Sequence record: OQ721911
Length of the DNA: 64,000 nt
Reading direction: 5' to 3' (one strand)
Source of the DNA: Escherichia phage vB_VIPECOOM03
Shown: piece after piece, positions 48,712 to 55,150 of the stretch
How the letters are laid out: each line of letters starts with the position of its first letter
Position numbering within the stretch: the stretch's first letter is position 1
Program-made: the position numbers and the translations under genes
The notes under the pieces: model-generated
Seen by the model: only the letters and a program-made list of their open reading frames with translations
Databases searched by the model: none
What the model was told of the DNA's origin: nothing

Positions 48712-49827
48712 ATGGAAAAATTTATGGCAGAGTTTGGACAAGGATACGTCCAAACGCCATTTTTATCGGAAAGTAATTCAGTAAGATATAAAATAAGTAT
48801 AGCGGGTTCTTGCCCGCTTTCTACAGCAGGACCGTATGTTAAATTTCAGGATAATCCTGTCGGAAATCAAACATTTAGCGCAGGTCTTCATTTAAGAGTT
48901 TTTGACCCTTCAACAGGAGCATTAGTTGATAGTAAGTCATATGCTTTTTCTACTTCAAATAATACTACATCAGCTGCTTTTGTTAGTTTCATGAATTCTT
49001 TGTCAAACAATAGACTTGTTGCTATATTAACTAGCGGAAAGGTTAATTTTCCTCCTGAAGTGATATCTTGGTTAAGGGGAGCAGGAACTTCAGTTTTTCC
49101 ATCAGATTCAGTATTGTCAAGATTTGACGTATCATATGCTGCTTTTTATACTTCTTCTAAAAGAGCTATTGCATTAGAGCATGTTAAACTAAGTAATAGA
49201 AAAAGCACAGATGATTATCAAACTATTTTAGATGTTGTATTTGATAGTTTAGAAGACGTCGGAGCTACGGGATTTCCTAAAAGAACATATGAAAGTGTCG
49301 AGCAATTTATGTCAGCGGTTGGTGGAACTAATAACGAAATTGCGCGATTGCCAACTTCAGCTGCTATAAGTAAACTATCTGATTATAATTTAATTCCTGG
49401 CGATGTTCTTTATCTTAAAGCACAGTTATATGCTGATGCTGATTTACTTGATCTTGGAACTACAAACATATCCATTCGTTTTTATGATGCATCAAATGGA
49501 TATATTTCCTCTACCCAAGCTGAGTTTACTGGGCAAGCTGGGTCTTGGGAATTAAAGGAAGATTATGTAGTTGTTCCTGAAAATGCAGTCGGATTTACTA
49601 TATATGCGCAGAGAACTGCTCAAGCTGGTCAAGGCGGAATGAGGAATTTAAGCTTTTCTGAAGTATCAAGAAATGGCGGCATTTCAAAACCTGCCGAATT
49701 TGGCGTCAACGGTATTCGTGTTAATTATATCTGTGAATCGGCTTCACCTCCAGATATAATGGTACTTCCTACACAAGCCTCTTCTAAAACTGGCAAAGTG
49801 TTTGGGCAAGAATTTAGAGAAGTTTAA
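48712..49827 (+). CDS. 35: Long tail fibre hinge protein gp35
   Basis: 371 aa, syntenic between genes 34 and 36. Confidence 0.92.
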   Translation: MEKFMAEFGQGYVQTPFLSESNSVRYKISIAGSCPLSTAGPYVKFQDNPVGNQTFSAGLHLRVFDPSTGALVDSKSYAFSTSNNTTSAAFVSFMNSLSNNRLVAILTSGKVNFPPEVISWLRGAGTSVFPSDSVLSRFDVSYAAFYTSSKRAIALEHVKLSNRKSTDDYQTILDVVFDSLEDVGATGFPKRTYESVEQFMSAVGGTNNEIARLPTSAAISKLSDYNLIPGDVLYLKAQLYADADLLDLGTTNISIRFYDASNGYISSTQAEFTGQAGSWELKEDYVVVPENAVGFTIYAQRTAQAGQGGMRNLSFSEVSRNGGISKPAEFGVNGIRVNYICESASPPDIMVLPTQASSKTGKVFGQEFREV

Positions 49828-49832
49828 ACTGA

Positions 49833-49860
49833 GGGAGCCTTCGGGTTCCCTTTTTCTTTA
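49833..49860 (+). terminator. Gene 35 terminator hairpin GGGAGCC-UUCG-GGUUCCC plus U-run (copy 1)
   Basis: 7-bp stem (one G-U pair), UUCG tetraloop, UUUUUCUUUA. Confidence 0.6.
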
Positions 49861-49959
49861 TGAATCGGCTTCACCTCCAGATATAATGGTACTTCCTACA
49901 CAAGCCTCTTCTAAAACTGGCAAAGTGTTTGGGCAAGAATTTAGAGAAGTTTAAACTGA

Positions 49960-49987
49960 GGGAGCCTTCGGGTTCCCTTTTTCTTTA
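49960..49987 (+). terminator. Duplicated terminator hairpin (copy 2)
   Basis: Identical sequence 127 bp downstream of copy 1. Confidence 0.6.
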
Positions 49988-49993
49988 TAAATA
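49986..49993 (+). promoter_or_regulatory. Late promoter TATAAATA for gene 36
   Basis: TATAAATA spanning the 3' edge of repeat copy 2, 24 bp upstream of the gene 36 ATG. Confidence 0.65.
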
Positions 49994-50016: not shown

Positions 50017-50673
50017 ATGGCTGATTTAAAAGTAGGTTCAACTGTGGGTGGATCTGTCATTTGGCATCAAGGAAATTTTCCATTGAATTCAGCCGGTGAC
50101 GATGTACTCTACAAATCATTTAAAATATATTCAGAATATAATAAACCGCAGGCAGCTGATAACGATTTCGTTTCTAAAGCTAATGGCGGTACGTATTTAA
50201 ATAAAGTAATTTTTAATAAAGGAATGACTGTTCCTGGTGCAGGGTCAGGTGACAATGGTATTTTTGCTGGTCCTGGTGATAATGCCACGTATGATACTAC
50301 AAATATGGATATTGTTTCGTGGTATGGTATTGGTTTTAAATCATCACAGGGTTCAGCGGGTAGAACTGTAGTAATTAACACGCGAAATGGAGATATTAGC
50401 TCAAAGGGTGTAATTGAAGCATCACAAATACGCGCAACTTCATTATCACCAGTAAATAATTATGACCTTACACGGAAAGATTATGTTGATGGAGCAATAA
50501 ATATTGTTACAGCAAACGCAAACTCTAGAGTATTACGCTCTGGAGACACTATGACAGGAAATTTGACTGCGCCAAACCTTTTTTCACAGAATCCTGCATC
50601 TCAACCTTCACATGTTCCACGATTTGATCAAATTGTTATTAAGGATTCTGTTCAAGATTTCGGCTATTATTAA
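50017..50673 (+). CDS. 36: Long tail fibre distal hinge subunit gp36
   Basis: 218 aa, [46 protein letters not shown]. Confidence 0.92.
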
Positions 50674-50681
50674 GAGGACTT

Positions 50682-53630
50682 ATGGCTACTTTAAAACAAA
50701 TACAATTTAAAAGAAGCAAAACCGCAGGTCAACTTCCTGCTGCTTCAGTATTAGCCGAAGGTGAATTGGCTATTAATTTAAAAGATAAAGCAATTTTCAC
50801 AAAAGATGATTCAGGCAATGTTATAGAATTAGGTTTAAAATATGGAGGAACAATTGATGGTTCTTTAACTGTTAATGGAAATATAACTGGAACTTTAATT
50901 GGAAATTCTAGCACAGCTACTAAATTGCAAACACCTAGGAAAATTAATGGTATATCCTTTGATGGGTCAAAAGATATCACGCTAACTCCATCTGACATAA
51001 ATGTCAATAGCACAACGTTTATAAAAAATAACGGCGAATTACCGGTTGATGCTAATTTAGATGAGTATGGGCCTGTTGAAGAATATCTTGGGGTTTGGTC
51101 GAAATCTACTTCAACAAATGCGCAACCGGCAAATAAATTCCCAGAAGAAAATGCCGTAGGTGTACTAGAAGTATTTGTGGCCGGTCAATTTGCTGGTACT
51201 CAGAGATATACTGTAAGATCTGGTAACGTATATGTTCGATCTTTGTCTGCTAAATGGAACGGTGTTAACGGTCCGTGGGGAGTTTGGCGTAATGTTCAAG
51301 CGTCAACTCGTCCACTTTCACAAACGATTGACCTTGATAGCTTGGGAGAATTAGAACATTGCGGCTTATGGCGAAATAGTTCAAGTGCTATTGCATCATT
51401 TGATCGCCATTATCCAGAAGAAGGATCAGCCGCACAAGGATTTTTAGAAATATTTGAAGGTGGTTTATACACGAGAACGCAGCGATATACTACCCGCATG
51501 GGTATGGTTTATACTCGTTGTCTCGCTGCCGCATGGGATGCTAGCGCACCCAAGTGGGAGGAATGGAAGCAGGTTGGTCATGGCACACCAGCGACTTTTT
51601 ATGATGGAGATCTGAATGATTTTAAAACTCCTGGGTTATATAATATTTTAGGCACTGATGCCGTTATTAATTGCCCTACAGGTGAAGGTTTACCAGCCGT
51701 TATTGTTGGTTTGCTAGAAGTTAAACAGCGTGCTTCTGGTGGTGCTATTTTCCAAAAATTTACTACTGCCGGAACGGGTGAAACTACTCGCGATCGTATT
51801 TTTGAGCGTGCATATACTGGTGGTGCGTGGGGTGCATGGAACGAAGTATATACATCTTATTCTCTGCCAATTACTTTGGGTATGGGTGGTATTAAAGCTC
51901 AATTATCGGAGTTAGATTGGCAAACCTTTGATTTTGTTCCTGGTAGTATGTTTAGCGTTCCTTTGAACAAAATAAAGAATATGCCAGCAAATATGGATTG
52001 GGGCACGATTGATGGAAACCTGGTTATGTTTTCCGTTGGTCCTAGCGAACATACTGGCACAGGACGTACTGTTCAGGTTTGGCGTGGTACTGTATCCCAG
52101 ACAAACTACCGTTATTTTGTTGTGCGTATAGCTGGAAATCCAGGAAACAGGACTAACACTTGTCGCCGTGTTGTTCTTGAAGACGGATCACATACTTGGA
52201 CTGCTCAACAAAACTTTAGGGGATTGCTAAATATCACCGCTGATATTAATCTTGGTGCTAATAAGAAAATTTCAATTGCTCCGGGAGCATATATTCAAGG
52301 CCCTGCTAGCGGTTCTGGTTCAAATACTTACGCAAATCAGAATACTACTATTGCGCCATTATATCAGGCCATTGACGATTCAAATAAAAACCAGTTTGCT
52401 CCTATTGTAAAACAGAAAAACACTGTAACAAATATTACTATGGCTTCTGGTATGGATATTGCTAGTTCAGAATATCGTATCATTGCTCAAGGTGATTTAT
52501 CCGCTACTGGAACTACAGCTAATGAATTAGCTACATGGCGTTTCTTGCCGTCTGGCCGATTCATGTCACAAAGTCGAGTTTATGCTGGCGCAGCATTCTT
52601 GAACACTGATGGTAACATTGCTGGTTCAATCTGGAAGAAATACAACGATGCAACCAACTTAGACGCTGCTTTGAATACTCGCGTAGGTAAAAGCGGTGAT
52701 ATTATGACCGGACGCTTGACAATTCAAAGCCCAGGTGATTCTATTGTATTATCAGCACCTGCTAGTAATTCTTTGCATATTCGTGGTGACGTAGACGGGA
52801 CTGGTAACTGGTATATTGGTAAGGGTGGTGATGATAATGGATTAGCGTTCTATAGTTATGCTACTAATGCTGGTGTATACATTACAAACGCAGGAGATAT
52901 CACGCTAAGTCCAAAAGGCGTCGAAATGGCTCATGTCAATAACATTCGATTATATGTTCATGGTGAACGTTGGACCGCTAGTCAACCAGGTGATTGGGGC
53001 AACCAATGGCGAGTAGAAGCGCCAATATTCGTCGATCATGGTTATGTTGGATCAGATAGCTATTATCCAATTATTAAAGGAAGAAGTGTAGTCACCAATC
53101 AAGGGTTTGTAACTGCCGTCGATCTTGGTATTCGTCGTGTCCCTAATAATTGGGGACAAGCAATTATTCGTGTTGGATCTGCGGAGGCATCGCCAGCGGC
53201 TGGACACCCTAACGCGGTATTTGAATTTCATTACGACGGTACTTTCTATTCTCCTGGTAATGGTAACTTTAACGATGTGTATATTCGTTCCGATGGTCGA
53301 CTTAAGATCAATAAAGAAGAGTTAGAAAACGGAGCACTTGAAAAAGTATGCCGACTGAAGGTTTATACATACGATAAGGTTAAGTCTATTAAAGATCGTA
53401 GTGTTATTAAACGTGAAGTTGGTATTATTGCTCAGGATCTTGAAAAAGAATTACCGGAAGCTGTGTCTAAAGTTGAAGTTGATGGATCTGATGTTCTGAC
53501 AATTTCTAACTCCGCTGTGAATGCTCTTTTAATTAAGGCTATCCAAGAAATGAGCGAAGAAATTAAAGAATTAAAAACGCCTTTCTTCACTAAAATTGCT
53601 CGCAAAATTAGTAATTATTTTAAATTCTAA
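50682..53630 (+). CDS. 37: Long tail fibre distal subunit gp37 with C-terminal intramolecular-chaperone-like domain
   Basis: 982 aa, [51 protein letters not shown]; C-terminus has SDGRLK and GIIAQDLE motifs. Confidence 0.92.
53289..53630 (+). other. Putative self-cleaving intramolecular chaperone domain (peptidase S74-like) at the gp37 C-terminus
   Basis: Last 113 codons: S870-D-G-R-L-K875 (Ser/Lys spacing as in endosialidase and T5 L-shaped fibre chaperone domains), then [16 protein letters not shown]. Confidence 0.6.
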
Positions 53631-53636
53631 CAACAA

Positions 53637-53649
53637 GGGGCTTTGCCCC
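53637..53649 (+). terminator. Hairpin GGGGC-UUU-GCCCC between genes 37 and 38
   Basis: Short stem-loop; downstream sequence is not U-rich, so it may be an RNA stability or attenuator element rather than a full terminator. Confidence 0.35.
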
Positions 53650-53662
53650 TTTGGAGAAAATT

Positions 53663-54463
53663 ATGGCAGTAGTTGGTGTTCCCGGTTGGATTGGAAGTTC
53701 ATCTGTAAATGAAACAGGACAACGATGGATGAGTCAAGCGGCTGGTCAATTAAGATTGGGTGTTCCTTGCTGGATGAGCCAATTCGCCGGACGCTCAAGA
53801 GAGATTATTCATACCGTAACAGCAAACCATAACTTTAATGGTCAATGGTTCCGCGACCGTTGCTTTGAAGCTGGCGGTGCACCCATTGTATTCAATATTG
53901 TTGGTGATATCGTTTCTTATTCTAAAGATGTGCCACTTTTCTTTATGTATGGGGATACGCCTAATGAATATGTTGTTCTTAATATTCATGGCGGTGTTCA
54001 TATGTGGGGTCGTGGTGGTAATGGTGGATACACTCACTCAGGAGGCGACGGTAACGGTACACAAGGCGGTCATGTTATTCAAAATGATATCGGTGGACGG
54101 CTTCGTATTTGGAACTACGGTGTTATAGCTGCTGGCGGTGGTGGTGGTGGCGGTATTGCATATCGTCCACACTCAGGGGCAAACTGGCAAGATATCGGTG
54201 GCGGTGGCGGTCGACCTTTCGGTGGTGCTGGCGGTGGCGGTTATTCCGGTGGTGCTGCTTCGTATGAAGGTCCGGGTGGTGGTTATGACTATGGTAACGC
54301 ACACTCCGGCGCAGGCGGTAATGCTGGTGCTGCTGGTCAGAATGCATGGTATGACGGCGGTAAAGTTCTTAAAGTTGGTGTTGGTGGTGCGTCTGGTCAT
54401 GCAGTGTTTGGATCTTCTCCAACTTGGGGTGCTGTTGGAACAATTTACGGACCAAGAGTATAA
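53663..54463 (+). CDS. 38: T2-type receptor-recognising tail fibre adhesin gp38 with glycine-rich motifs
   Basis: 266 aa from ATG 53663 (GGAG SD); [43 protein letters not shown] then poly-Gly blocks (GGGGGGG, GGGGG, GGAGGGG) separated by short variable segments. Confidence 0.9.
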
Positions 54464-54493: not shown

Positions 54494-55150
54494 ATGGCAG
54501 CACCTAGAATATCATTTTCGCCCTCTGATATTCTGTTGGGTGTTCTAGATCGCTTGTTCAAAGATAATGCTACCGGGAAAGTTCTTGCTTCCCGGGTAGC
54601 TGTCGTAATTCTTTTGTTTATAATGGCGATTGTTTGGTATAGGGGAGATAGTTTCTTTGAGTACTATAAGCAATCAAAGTATGAAACATACAGTGAAATT
54701 ATTGAAAAGGAAAGAAATGCACGCTTTGAATCTGTCGCCCTGGAACAACTCCAGATAGTTCATATATCATCTGAGGCAGACTTTAGTGCGGTGTATTCTT
54801 TCCGCCCTAAAAACTTAAACTATTTTGTTGATATTATAGCATATGAAGGAAAATTACCTTCAACAATAAGTGAAAAATCACTTGGAGGATATCCTGTTGA
54901 TAAAACTATGGATGAATATGCAGTTCATTTAAATGGACGTCATTATTATTCAAACTCAAAATTTGCTTTTTTACCAACTAAAAAGCCTACTCCCGAAATA
55001 AATTACATGTACAGTTGTCCATATTTTAATTTGGATAATATCTATGCTGGAACAATAACCATGTACTGGTATAGAAATGATCATATAAGTAATGACCGCC
55101 TTGAATCAATATGTGCTCAGGCGGCCAGAATATTAGGAAGGGCTAAATAA
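54494..55150 (+). CDS. t: Holin T
   Basis: 218 aa, MAAPRISFSPSDILLGVLDRLFKDNATGKVLASRVAVVILLFIMAIVWYRG; single TM plus large periplasmic domain as in T4 T. Confidence 0.95.
   Translation: MAAPRISFSPSDILLGVLDRLFKDNATGKVLASRVAVVILLFIMAIVWYRGDSFFEYYKQSKYETYSEIIEKERNARFESVALEQLQIVHISSEADFSAVYSFRPKNLNYFVDIIAYEGKLPSTISEKSLGGYPVDKTMDEYAVHLNGRHYYSNSKFAFLPTKKPTPEINYMYSCPYFNLDNIYAGTITMYWYRNDHISNDRLESICAQAARILGRAK

Follow-up and report, generated by a model that had tools for sequence, protein, structure and literature searches.

What kind of host-recognition apparatus terminates the long tail fibre of Escherichia phage vB_VIPECOOM03, how would it mature, and which receptor would it engage? These questions are raised by positions 50682-54463 of the 64,000 nucleotides analysed here (record OQ721911; hereafter the window), for which an earlier note, made from the sequence alone, had proposed a fibre tip of the T2 type. 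The fibre-tip module is real, was in the main correctly read, and is already known. Its genetics have been clear since the 1980s (T2, Ox2) and its structure since 2018 (S16), its exact cleavage junction has been described before, and genes 37 and 38 are annotated in the deposited genome. The locus very probably constitutes the distal tip module of a T4-like (Tequatrovirus) long tail fibre of the adhesin-capped kind, for which a mechanism of cleavage followed by docking is proposed. The value of this analysis lies at the level of annotation, and it carries little weight as a discovery.

The segment matches GenBank OQ721909.1, the genome of Escherichia phage vB_VIPECOOM01 (Tequatrovirus), at 100.0% identity in a single unbroken match, and genes 37 and 38 carry a tail-fibre annotation in that record, WFG77869.1 being annotated as 'long tail fiber protein distal subunit'. 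The gene order 37, 38 and holin t (Table 1) fits the layout of the GP38 adhesin family. Ahead of gene 36, a T4-type late promoter motif, TATAAATA, is probably the start of the transcript of genes 36, 37 and 38. It occupies a position corresponding to an annotated late promoter in Yersinia phage fPS-2; because the count of this motif across the whole window is not above chance, the promoter reading is argued from position alone.

Table 1. Features of the fibre-tip locus and its surroundings (positions refer to the window)
Feature	Position	Strand	Evidence or remark
Late promoter motif TATAAATA, T4 type (probable)	49986..49993	+	Upstream of gene 36; exact match
Gene 36, distal hinge connector of long tail fibre	50017..50673	+	Pfam Phage_T4_gp36 E=7e-30; OQ721909.1 annotation agrees
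Gene 37, distal long-tail-fibre subunit, 982-aa precursor, 106.7 kDa	50682..53630	+	ORF; 100% identical to WFG77869.1
Predicted mature gp37, residues 1-869, 93.9 kDa	50682..53288	+	Alignment with S16 gp37; predicted cleavage
Terminal strand D865-V-Y-I-R869	53274-53288	+	Should form the gp38 docking face
IMC / Peptidase_S74 domain, residues 870-982, 12.8 kDa	53289..53627	+	Pfam PF13884 E=1.1e-11
Nucleophile S870	53289-53291	+	Inside gp37 IMC domain
K875	53304-53306	+	Inside gp37 IMC domain
G914-x-x-A917-Q918 motif in VGIIAQDLE	53418-53444	+	Inside gp37 IMC domain
Intergenic hairpin AAGGGGC-TTT-GCCCCTT	53635-53651	+	Gap between genes 37 and 38; read directly
Shine-Dalgarno GGAG	53653-56	+	6 nt ahead of gene 38 ATG; read directly
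Gene 38, monomeric receptor-binding adhesin, 266 aa, 27.0 kDa, Ox2 type	53663..54463	+	Pfam GP38, Gp38_N; PDB homology
gp38 N-terminal attachment domain, residues 1-42, W9/W22/W37	53663..53788	+	Pfam Gp38_N
Exchange zone in gene 38	53932..53950	+	Upstream side near-identical to fPS-90 and T6; downstream near-identical to Ox2
gp38 specificity domain, about residues 118-246	54014..54400	+	Glycine-rich motifs alternating with hypervariable segments
Glycine runs in gene 38	54134-54154, 54197-54211, 54230-54241, 54275-54283	+	Pure GGT/GGC
Holin t	54494-55150		Phage_holin_T E=3e-117

In the proposed pathway gp37, a trimeric protein, would be made as a precursor whose intramolecular chaperone (IMC) domain seeds trimer formation and the folding of the beta-helical fibre ahead of it. 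The fold of such domains comprises a central trimeric coiled coil and a flanking alpha/beta domain with beta-hairpin tentacles. After correct folding of the trimer, S870, with K875 as its activator, would cut between R869 and S870 and release the chaperone, exposing a flat trimeric face that ends in DVYIR. A single gp38 would then dock on this face through its N-terminal helical domain and W9, W22 and W37, giving a predicted stoichiometry of 3:1. The C-terminal half of gp38 would form a polyglycine-II sandwich from its glycine-rich motifs, and the hypervariable loops at the end of that sandwich would bind the host outer-membrane receptor.

The identity of the capping protein is established by profile and structural homology. 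Read from the ATG, gene 38 encodes the 266 residues that the earlier note had given; an in-frame TTG at 53651 would yield 270 aa, and the ATG is preferred because all homologues begin MAV(V)G. The Pfam GP38 model (PF05268 + PF21721 family) covers residues 47-266 over all 218 profile positions (E=3.2e-66), and Gp38_N matches the N-terminal domain with E=1.4e-19. Solved structures matched in the PDB are 9v85_A (E=4e-61), whose gp38 part agrees with PP01 gp38 at every residue of the aligned stretch, and 6f45_D, the gp38 of S16 (E=3e-43). The protein is accordingly an adhesin of the T2/T6/S16 class and not a T4-type chaperone, as had been claimed. The columns of W9, W22 and W37 are invariant in 14 gp38 sequences, S16 included, and in the S16 structure the Trp prongs insert into pockets of gp37 (PMC6851490). 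Glycine accounts for 69 of the 266 residues (26%; 45 GGT, 13 GGC, 9 GGA and 2 GGG codons). Runs of five to seven glycines had been described, which holds for the two longest (G7, residues 158-164; G5, 179-183), the remaining ones being G4 (190-193) and G3 (205-207); all are coded purely by GGT and GGC, at 54134-54283. Alignment reveals conserved GRGG, GGGGGG, GGGGGRP(F/L)G and GGxxG blocks separated by variable segments, and a W..(V/T)G.I.G C-terminal tail that homologues keep. By homology to the S16 and PP01 proteins, a polyglycine-II sandwich fold is expected for gp38 (PMC6851490).

The T2 label is sound for the functional class and fails for the relationship, since the tip is of the Ox2 type: identity is about 96% with Ox2 and 44-48% with T2 in conserved parts, and T2 was rejected as the nearest relative. 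Ox2 gp38 has the same length and shares 256 of the 266 residues (96.2%); over its final 251 aa, gp37 reaches about 96% identity, a comparison limited to the 3' end of Ox2 gene 37 because the remainder is absent from X05675.1. This Ox2 entry, sequenced in 1987 and labelled 'receptor-recognizing protein', has the gene order 37-38-t of the window, and its gp37 tail includes DVYIR^SDGRLK and the whole IMC. The C-terminal 155 aa of gp38 (nt 53996-54460) are 97.4% identical to Ox2 and 83.9% to RB32; 41 phage records reach at least 95% identity, and the Ox2 set of hypervariable segments is present.

The segments between the glycine motifs, which had been singled out as likely to define host range, are indeed the accepted determinants (PMC3157838, PMC6851490, PMC12032242). 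Ox2 binds OmpA loops, closely related gp38 proteins share a receptor, and gp38 phylogeny has been reported to predict the receptor (PMC12032242). OmpA is predicted as the primary receptor because the loop set of gp38 is that of Ox2. LPS may possibly contribute as well. RB32 requires OmpA plus LPS, Trojet et al. place Ox2 among the phages needing more than one receptor, and a role for surface polysaccharide is conceivable because the host used for isolation, ATCC 25922, is a wild-type strain. Assignment to the Ox2/OmpA adhesin subgroup helps to predict host range and resistance routes in the design of therapeutic cocktails.

The alternative that survives best accepts the architecture and moves the receptor, so that the four specificity-domain differences from Ox2, or a T6/fPS-90-like 5' half, would redirect recognition towards LPS or a different outer-membrane protein. 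Ten residues differ between the two gp38 proteins, six of them within residues 52-83 and four in the specificity domain (N174/K, G193/R, Y230/S and A257/V). Single loop changes have been reported to alter receptor use, and changes of a few residues switch receptors between PST and T6 and between SV76 and T2 (PMC3157838); phage fPS-65, with T6-like loops, nevertheless has the LPS inner core as its reported receptor. However, N174, G193 and A257 also occur in G9062, with Ox2 being the odd one at 174 and 193, and Y230 is common to the window, fFiEco06 and KIT03. G193 and A257 recur in most aligned relatives, and N174 in relatives with the Ox2-type loop set. A literature search for the receptor of KIT03, which has a related loop set, yielded nothing usable. 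Together with the near-identity of the C-terminal 155 aa and the reported predictive value of gp38 phylogeny, these shared residues make a receptor other than OmpA unlikely.

The window differs from fPS-90 at 2 positions within 53361-53931 and densely from 53932 on, while its mismatches to Ox2 number about 40 in 53779-53950 and 12 in 53951-54463; in residues 52-83 it follows T6 and fPS-90 rather than Ox2. The visible exchange at 53932-53950 thus lies upstream of the first glycine motif, and not in the block at 54120-54350 that the earlier note had taken for a recombination hotspot. With short homology inside it, the block was rejected as the site of visible exchange in this gene. Where the loop set differs, exact homology is 12-17 nt long inside the specificity domain; in the 5' part it extends over 17-227 nt for most relatives, and no exact match of at least 12 nt to T2 or S16 was found there.

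It is nonetheless conceivable that the GGT/GGC blocks act more generally as hotspots, shuffling single hypervariable segments between adhesins. The modular GRM/HVS layout and the notion that its specificity determinants are readily swapped are discussed by Trojet et al. (PMC3157838), the G7 and G5 runs provide the 12-17 nt matches to genes with other loop sets, and phage Mi has been described with a T6-like HVS1 and otherwise novel segments. An internal period of 27 nt (2.1 copies, 54199-54257) suggests past slippage or duplication. Against this, the comparison of 15 genes shows loop sets passed on as units, ECML-134 drops to 76% identity only towards the end of the gene, past the block, and homology within the block is short beside the up to 227 nt of its flank. 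The joint in the window itself precedes the block, and of the selected chimeras in Trojet et al. 2011 (PMC3157838), 14 of 14 had exchanged outside GRM1-GRM5. Shuffling through the glycine blocks is therefore judged improbable, somewhat more so than a change of receptor.

A further and very improbable idea is that the chimeric gene 38, which joins a T6/fPS-90-like attachment and beta-helix half to an Ox2-like specificity domain and carries a Y230 unusual in the Ox2 subgroup, might extend the receptor range beyond OmpA, for example to direct recognition of LPS or to the variant OmpA proteins of wild strains, ATCC 25922 among them. If so, the gene would be a natural test of whether the beta-helix half modulates gp38 specificity, on which Trojet et al. 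speculated for phage PST.

The other half of the module is the tail of gp37, for which the sequence details of the earlier note were exact. SDGRLK occupies residues 870-875, with the S870 codon starting at nt 53289, where the noted region begins; VGIIAQDLE lies at residues 913-921, and 113 residues run from S870 to the end of the protein, forming the extreme C-terminus of its 982. The proposed kinship with S74 chaperones was upheld by Pfam Peptidase_S74 (PF13884), which matches residues 870-928 over profile positions 1-57 of 58 at 45.2 bits against a cut-off of 22. The serine is the first residue of the domain and the lysine stands at the canonical +5 spacing. T5 pb1 has equal spacing (S1264/K1269), and cleavage is lost in its S1264A mutant (PMC4690869). 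In an alignment of 11 diverse fibre C-termini, drawn from Straboviridae, a T5-like phage, a Shigella phage (Oslovirus, Sepvirinae), a Streptococcus prophage and a Thermus phage, S870, D871, R873, K875, G914, A917, Q918, P925 and V928 are invariant. A phmmer search of the PDB with the 120-aa tail returned S16 gp37 as the sole significant match; the 11-sequence profile matched S16 gp37 (6f45_A, 5.5e-43), the MyRF autocleavage domain (7dc3_A, 2e-14), 8jov_1 and 3gud_A. Because even this profile did not recover the T5 pb1 and K1F endosialidase chains from the PDB, the tie to those two proteins rests on Pfam and the literature.

Cleavage is predicted between R869 and S870. The released GA-1 chaperone chain (3gud_A) begins SDERHK at the serine aligned with S870, and S870 also aligns to the S16 cleavage site, reported at DLNVS^SDRRIKK (PMC7917993). 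The junction had been placed near residue 870, which stands; the predicted mature C-terminus is R869 rather than the serine, because the latter departs with the chaperone, as in T5 pb1 (PMC4690869). R869 would also serve as the construct boundary for recombinant expression of the fibre tip. The suggestion that the cleavage site helps to define host range was rejected, since the junction is conserved in phages with different receptors: its S, D, R and K are invariant in the 11 fibres from very different phages, and the DVYIR strand is common to the window, T2, T6, Ox2 and the fPS phages. Among relatives the IMC is 94-100% conserved at the nucleotide level beside a mosaic upstream fibre, gene 37 being mosaic relative to other Tequatrovirus gp37, and purifying selection on the domain is therefore indicated. 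That the S74 domain is a non-cleaving relic, with gp37 full length in the virion and gp38 attached elsewhere or serving only in assembly like T4 gp38, is extremely improbable: cleavage in this phage is predicted from homology, but all family-invariant residues are intact, the Pfam score is twice the cut-off, selection appears to maintain the domain, and gp38 has the adhesin-family attachment domain with all three tryptophans.

The cleavage-docking reading also agrees with better-characterised systems. In the S16 gp37(3)-gp38 complex (PDB 6F45, Dunne et al. 2018), a gp37 beta-helix ends in a C-terminal IMC of 112-113 residues, cleavage occurs before an SD-R-x-K motif, and a monomeric gp38 combines three Trp prongs, a beta-helix and a polyglycine-II sandwich; for the window, the cleavage is predicted and the fold expected by homology. 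S16 differs in belonging to the genus Gelderlandvirus with another host and in being distant in sequence (HMMER 3e-43 for gp38 and 2.5e-4 for the IMC, or 7.2e-4 with full-length gp37; blastp 29% identity for gp37 residues 860-982), and its fibre ahead of the IMC is unrelated save for the last strand. The fPS phages stand closer at the junction, which is identical in fPS-2 and fPS-90 (DVYIR^SDGRLKI) and reads SDSRLKI in fPS-65, each with a 113-residue IMC. Cleavage and docking were already predicted for these phages in 2021 (PMC7917993); they differ from the window in their gp38 loop sets, with reported receptors of OmpF plus LPS or the LPS core. In T2 and T6, the C-terminus of gp37 is proteolytically processed and then capped by a gp38 of ~260 aa (PMC3157838, citing Drexler et al. 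1986), and both share the gene order and the SD-R-L-K motif. T2 differs in its 1341-aa gp37, its 99-residue IMC (44% identical) and its gp38, which is 48% identical over residues 1-151 and has another loop set (FadL/OmpF), whereas T6 matches the 5' part of gene 38 nearly exactly and has Tsx-type loops.

K1F endosialidase (PDB 3GW6), T5 pb1 (S1264A structure) and the GA-1 neck appendage (3GUD) likewise carry a C-terminal S74 domain in a trimeric fibre or spike, with the Ser nucleophile, Lys at +5, the G-x-I-A-Q motif and release after folding, which is predicted for the window. In those proteins, however, the matured end itself binds ligand or bears an enzyme, whereas here it would be a docking face for a separate adhesin. 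T4 shares the locus, the N-terminal part of gp37 and the late-gene context; its gp37 C-terminus is the receptor-binding tip, which is absent from the window, and its gp38 is an unrelated assembly chaperone with no reported role in host recognition (PMC6851490, PMC3157838), unlike the gp38 described here.

Several minor features of the region were also recorded. The folding energy of the hairpin between genes 37 and 38, -14.5 kcal/mol, does not differ significantly from that of shuffled sequence (z=-1.55), and no T run follows its stem; no function is therefore claimed for it. Within gene 38, the Gly-codon repeats give rise to off-frame and minus-strand ORFs as by-products, among them one at 54123-54347 (minus strand). 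Between genes 35 and 36, the window contains a perfect tandem duplication of 127 nt that is absent from the deposited record and unrelated to the fibre tip.

The distal fibre tip at 53289-54463 is a real feature, and the main interpretation of the earlier note is right. Translation of the open reading frames returns, to the residue, the SDGRLK and VGIIAQDLE motifs, the 113-residue tail and the 266-aa gp38 that it had read, and Pfam identifies the gene neighbours as gp36 (E=7e-30) and holin t (E=3e-117). The stretch 50682-54463 matches Escherichia phage vB_VIPECOOM01 (OQ721909.1), a Tequatrovirus with E. coli ATCC 25922 as isolation host, at 100.0% identity in a single piece; its record annotates gene 37 as "long tail fiber protein distal subunit" and gene 38 as "tail fiber protein; host specificity". 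The tip is textbook T-even biology: annotated already, sequenced in near-identical form in 1987, and with a mechanism for the same junction described in 2021.

Coordinates of the genes and sequence elements in the fibre region
Feature	Position	Strand	Remarks	Source
127-nt tandem duplication, perfect	~49735-49861 / 49862-49988 (alternative register 49725-49851 / 49852-49978)		Between genes 35 and 36	
Late-promoter motif TATAAATA	49986-49993		Immediately upstream of gene 36	
Gene 37, 982 codons	50682-53630	+		ORF reading
GC-rich hairpin AAGGGGC-TTT-GCCCCTT and gene 38 Shine-Dalgarno GGAG	53635-53656		Hairpin right after gene 37 stop, abutting GGAG	
Gene 38, 266 codons	ATG 53663 to stop 54463	+	Starts 32 nt downstream of gene 37	ORF reading

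The S74-like chaperone proposed for the end of gp37, the precursor of the distal long-tail-fibre subunit, is confirmed by a match of residues 870-928 to Pfam Peptidase_S74 ("chaperone of endosialidase"; E=1.1e-11, 57/58 profile positions, 45.2 bits against a cut-off of 22). SDGRLK lies at residues 870-875 and VGIIAQDLE at 913-921, and the S870 codon at nt 53289 opens the feature. When the gp37 C-termini of 14 T-even-type phages were aligned, S-D-x-R-x-K was common to all, each time after a conserved short strand (DVYIR in the window, the fPS phages, T6 and others; NVYIR in T2; DVYVR in PP01 and KIT03; DLNVS in S16), with 99-117 residues from the serine to the end. In a wider alignment, which took in a T5-like Salmonella phage, Vibrio phage ValKK3, a Shigella phage (Oslovirus, Sepvirinae), Streptococcus prophage PblB and Thermus phage phiYS40, the invariant columns were S870, D871, R873, K875, G914, A917, Q918, P925 and V928. 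The resulting profile matched four solved structures, namely 6f45_A (S16 gp37; 5.5e-43), 7dc3_A, 8jov_1 (tail fibre; 1.4e-11) and 3gud_A (the released GA-1 neck appendage chaperone; 1e-5), whose chain start, SDERHK, aligns at the S870 column. The 7dc3_A match of this chaperone profile (window 53289-53627; E=2e-14) is to the autocleavage domain of human/mouse myelin regulatory factor (MyRF), whose phage-eukaryote homology is already known (PMC8326128).

The T5 fibre protein pb1 carries a serine-lysine pair, S1264/K1269, spaced like S870/K875; the Thr1263-Ser1264 bond is cut, the serine departs with the chaperone, and S1264A abolishes auto-proteolysis (PMC4690869). By homology, gp37 would be expected to be cut between R869 and S870, with a mature subunit of 93.9 kDa and a released domain of 12.8 kDa as predicted products. 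The mechanism is already published for the window's very junction: in the prediction of Salem et al. (PMC7917993), gp37 is cut after DVYIR, the chaperone leaves and the face on which gp38 docks is uncovered. For T2 and T6, Trojet et al., citing Drexler et al. 1986, describe gp37 as processed by proteolysis at its C-terminus before gp38 caps it (PMC3157838). For the window's phage, we infer cleavage, stoichiometry and receptor by homology. The suggestion that the cleavage site helps to define host range is not upheld, because the junction is conserved across phages with different receptors.

The assignment of gp38 to the adhesin type likewise stands, with matches to Pfam GP38 (phage tail fibre adhesin; 218/218 profile positions, E=3.2e-66) and Gp38_N (E=1.4e-19), to 9v85_A (E=3.9e-61), a GFP fusion whose gp38 part is residue-identical to PP01 gp38 over the aligned stretch, and to 6f45_D (S16 gp38; E=3.2e-43). 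The N-terminal tryptophans W9, W22 and W37 are present, in columns invariant in 14/14 homologues; in S16, the gp37 trimer receives the three tryptophans in three pockets related by symmetry (PMC6851490). In the aligned C-terminal half, conserved glycine-rich motifs alternate with hypervariable segments in the canonical manner, and the equivalent region of S16 forms a three-layer polyglycine-II sandwich whose distal loops are proposed to bind the receptor (PMC6851490). Glycine contributes 69 residues (26%), and its runs (G7 158-164, G5 179-183, G4 190-193 and G3 205-207) use GGT and GGC codons exclusively (nt 54134-54283). Tandem Repeats Finder reports a 27-nt period at 54199-54257 (2.1 copies, 84% matches; GGGGRPFGG / AGGGGYSGG), a hint that adjacent glycine motifs arose when one was duplicated within the gene long ago.

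With the C-terminal 155 aa of gp38 as query, tblastn returned 41 phage records at 95% identity or above, among them Ox2 gene 38 (X05675.1, GenBank 1987; 97.4%). Over full-length gp38, Ox2 is identical at 256/266 residues, and the 251 gp37 residues of its entry, including the entire chaperone domain, are ~96% identical, far above the values for T2 (48% for residues 1-151 of gp38, 44% for the chaperone domain). The label "T2-type" is therefore correct as a functional class, whereas the specific relative is, judged by these identities, Ox2. Since Ox2 attaches to OmpA at its extracellular loops (PMC12032242), RB32 (83.9% over the C-terminal 155 aa) requires OmpA and is sensitive to LPS composition (PMC3157838), and gp38 proteins that are closely related share a receptor (PMC12032242), OmpA is the predicted primary receptor. 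This prediction should be read with the four residues that differ from Ox2 in the specificity domain (174, 193, 230 and 257), given that small loop changes can alter gp38 specificity, and with the inclusion of Ox2 among phages requiring more than one receptor (PMC3157838).

Sliding nucleotide identity to fPS-90 reveals only 2 mismatches in 53361-53931 and sharp divergence from 53932, while Ox2 differs at ~40 positions in 53779-53950 and at only 12 in 53951-54463; this places the exchange point at ~53932-53950, at residues 90-96 of gp38 and thus upstream of its first glycine motif. T6 is close to the window from ~53381 to 53991, and identity to ECML-134 drops to 76% only in the final part of gene 38. 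Loop sets are inherited as wholes among the 15 gene 38 sequences compared. With genes that carry other loop sets, the longest exact matches in the specificity domain measure 12-17 nt; in the 5' part of the gene, most relatives share matches of up to 17-227 nt, and T2 and S16 have none of at least 12 nt. Moreover, in 14/14 selected chimeras of RB5 x RB32/33, the exchange had taken place outside GRM1-GRM5, the glycine-rich motifs (PMC3157838). Because of the upstream exchange point, the whole loop sets, the short in-block matches and these chimeras, the glycine block is not supported as a recombination hotspot for the window's gene 38, although, with 15 genes compared, such a hotspot may still exist in general.

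The gp37 protein is itself mosaic: its counterparts in T6, PYps11T, fPS-90, G9062 and fFiEco06 are 86-94% identical to it over residues 1-524 and 677-982, and the ~150 residues between (~525-676; window 52254-52709) gave no blastp alignment to these five counterparts. Whole-gene relatives exist, such as ZCEC14 at 97.4%.

A late-promoter motif precedes gene 36, at a position matching an annotated late promoter in fPS-2, and none precedes gene 38; genes 36-37-38 are thus probably co-transcribed. The stability of the hairpin after gene 37 is not significantly above shuffled controls; fPS-65 has a terminator annotated at the equivalent place, on the opposite strand.

The 127-nt duplication is the sole substantive difference from OQ721909.1, whose positions 104520-168392 otherwise cover the whole window. 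Its unit comprises the last ~93 nt of gene 35, the stop codon, a terminator-like hairpin GAGGGAGCCTTCGGGTTCCCT and the T-rich stretch that follows. It is also absent from 12/12 related phage records among the matches listed, each matching in two pieces, and it creates a spurious 50-aa ORF (49802-49954) repeating the gp35 C-terminus. Its possible origins are a very recent duplication event, a variant of the assembly or an edit. Within gp35, the proximal hinge connector (gene 35, 48712-49827), residues 58-120 match Pfam ILEI (interleukin-like EMT inducer / FAM3 fold; E=3.3e-8, 34.4 bits against a curated cut-off of 27), a family name that one would not expect in the hinge protein of a phage fibre. 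In the fPS-90 record (LR215723.1, 8134-8874), the holin CDS has an extended start (741 nt versus 657 nt in relatives) and runs 40 nt into the end of gene 38, probably a start-codon mis-call.
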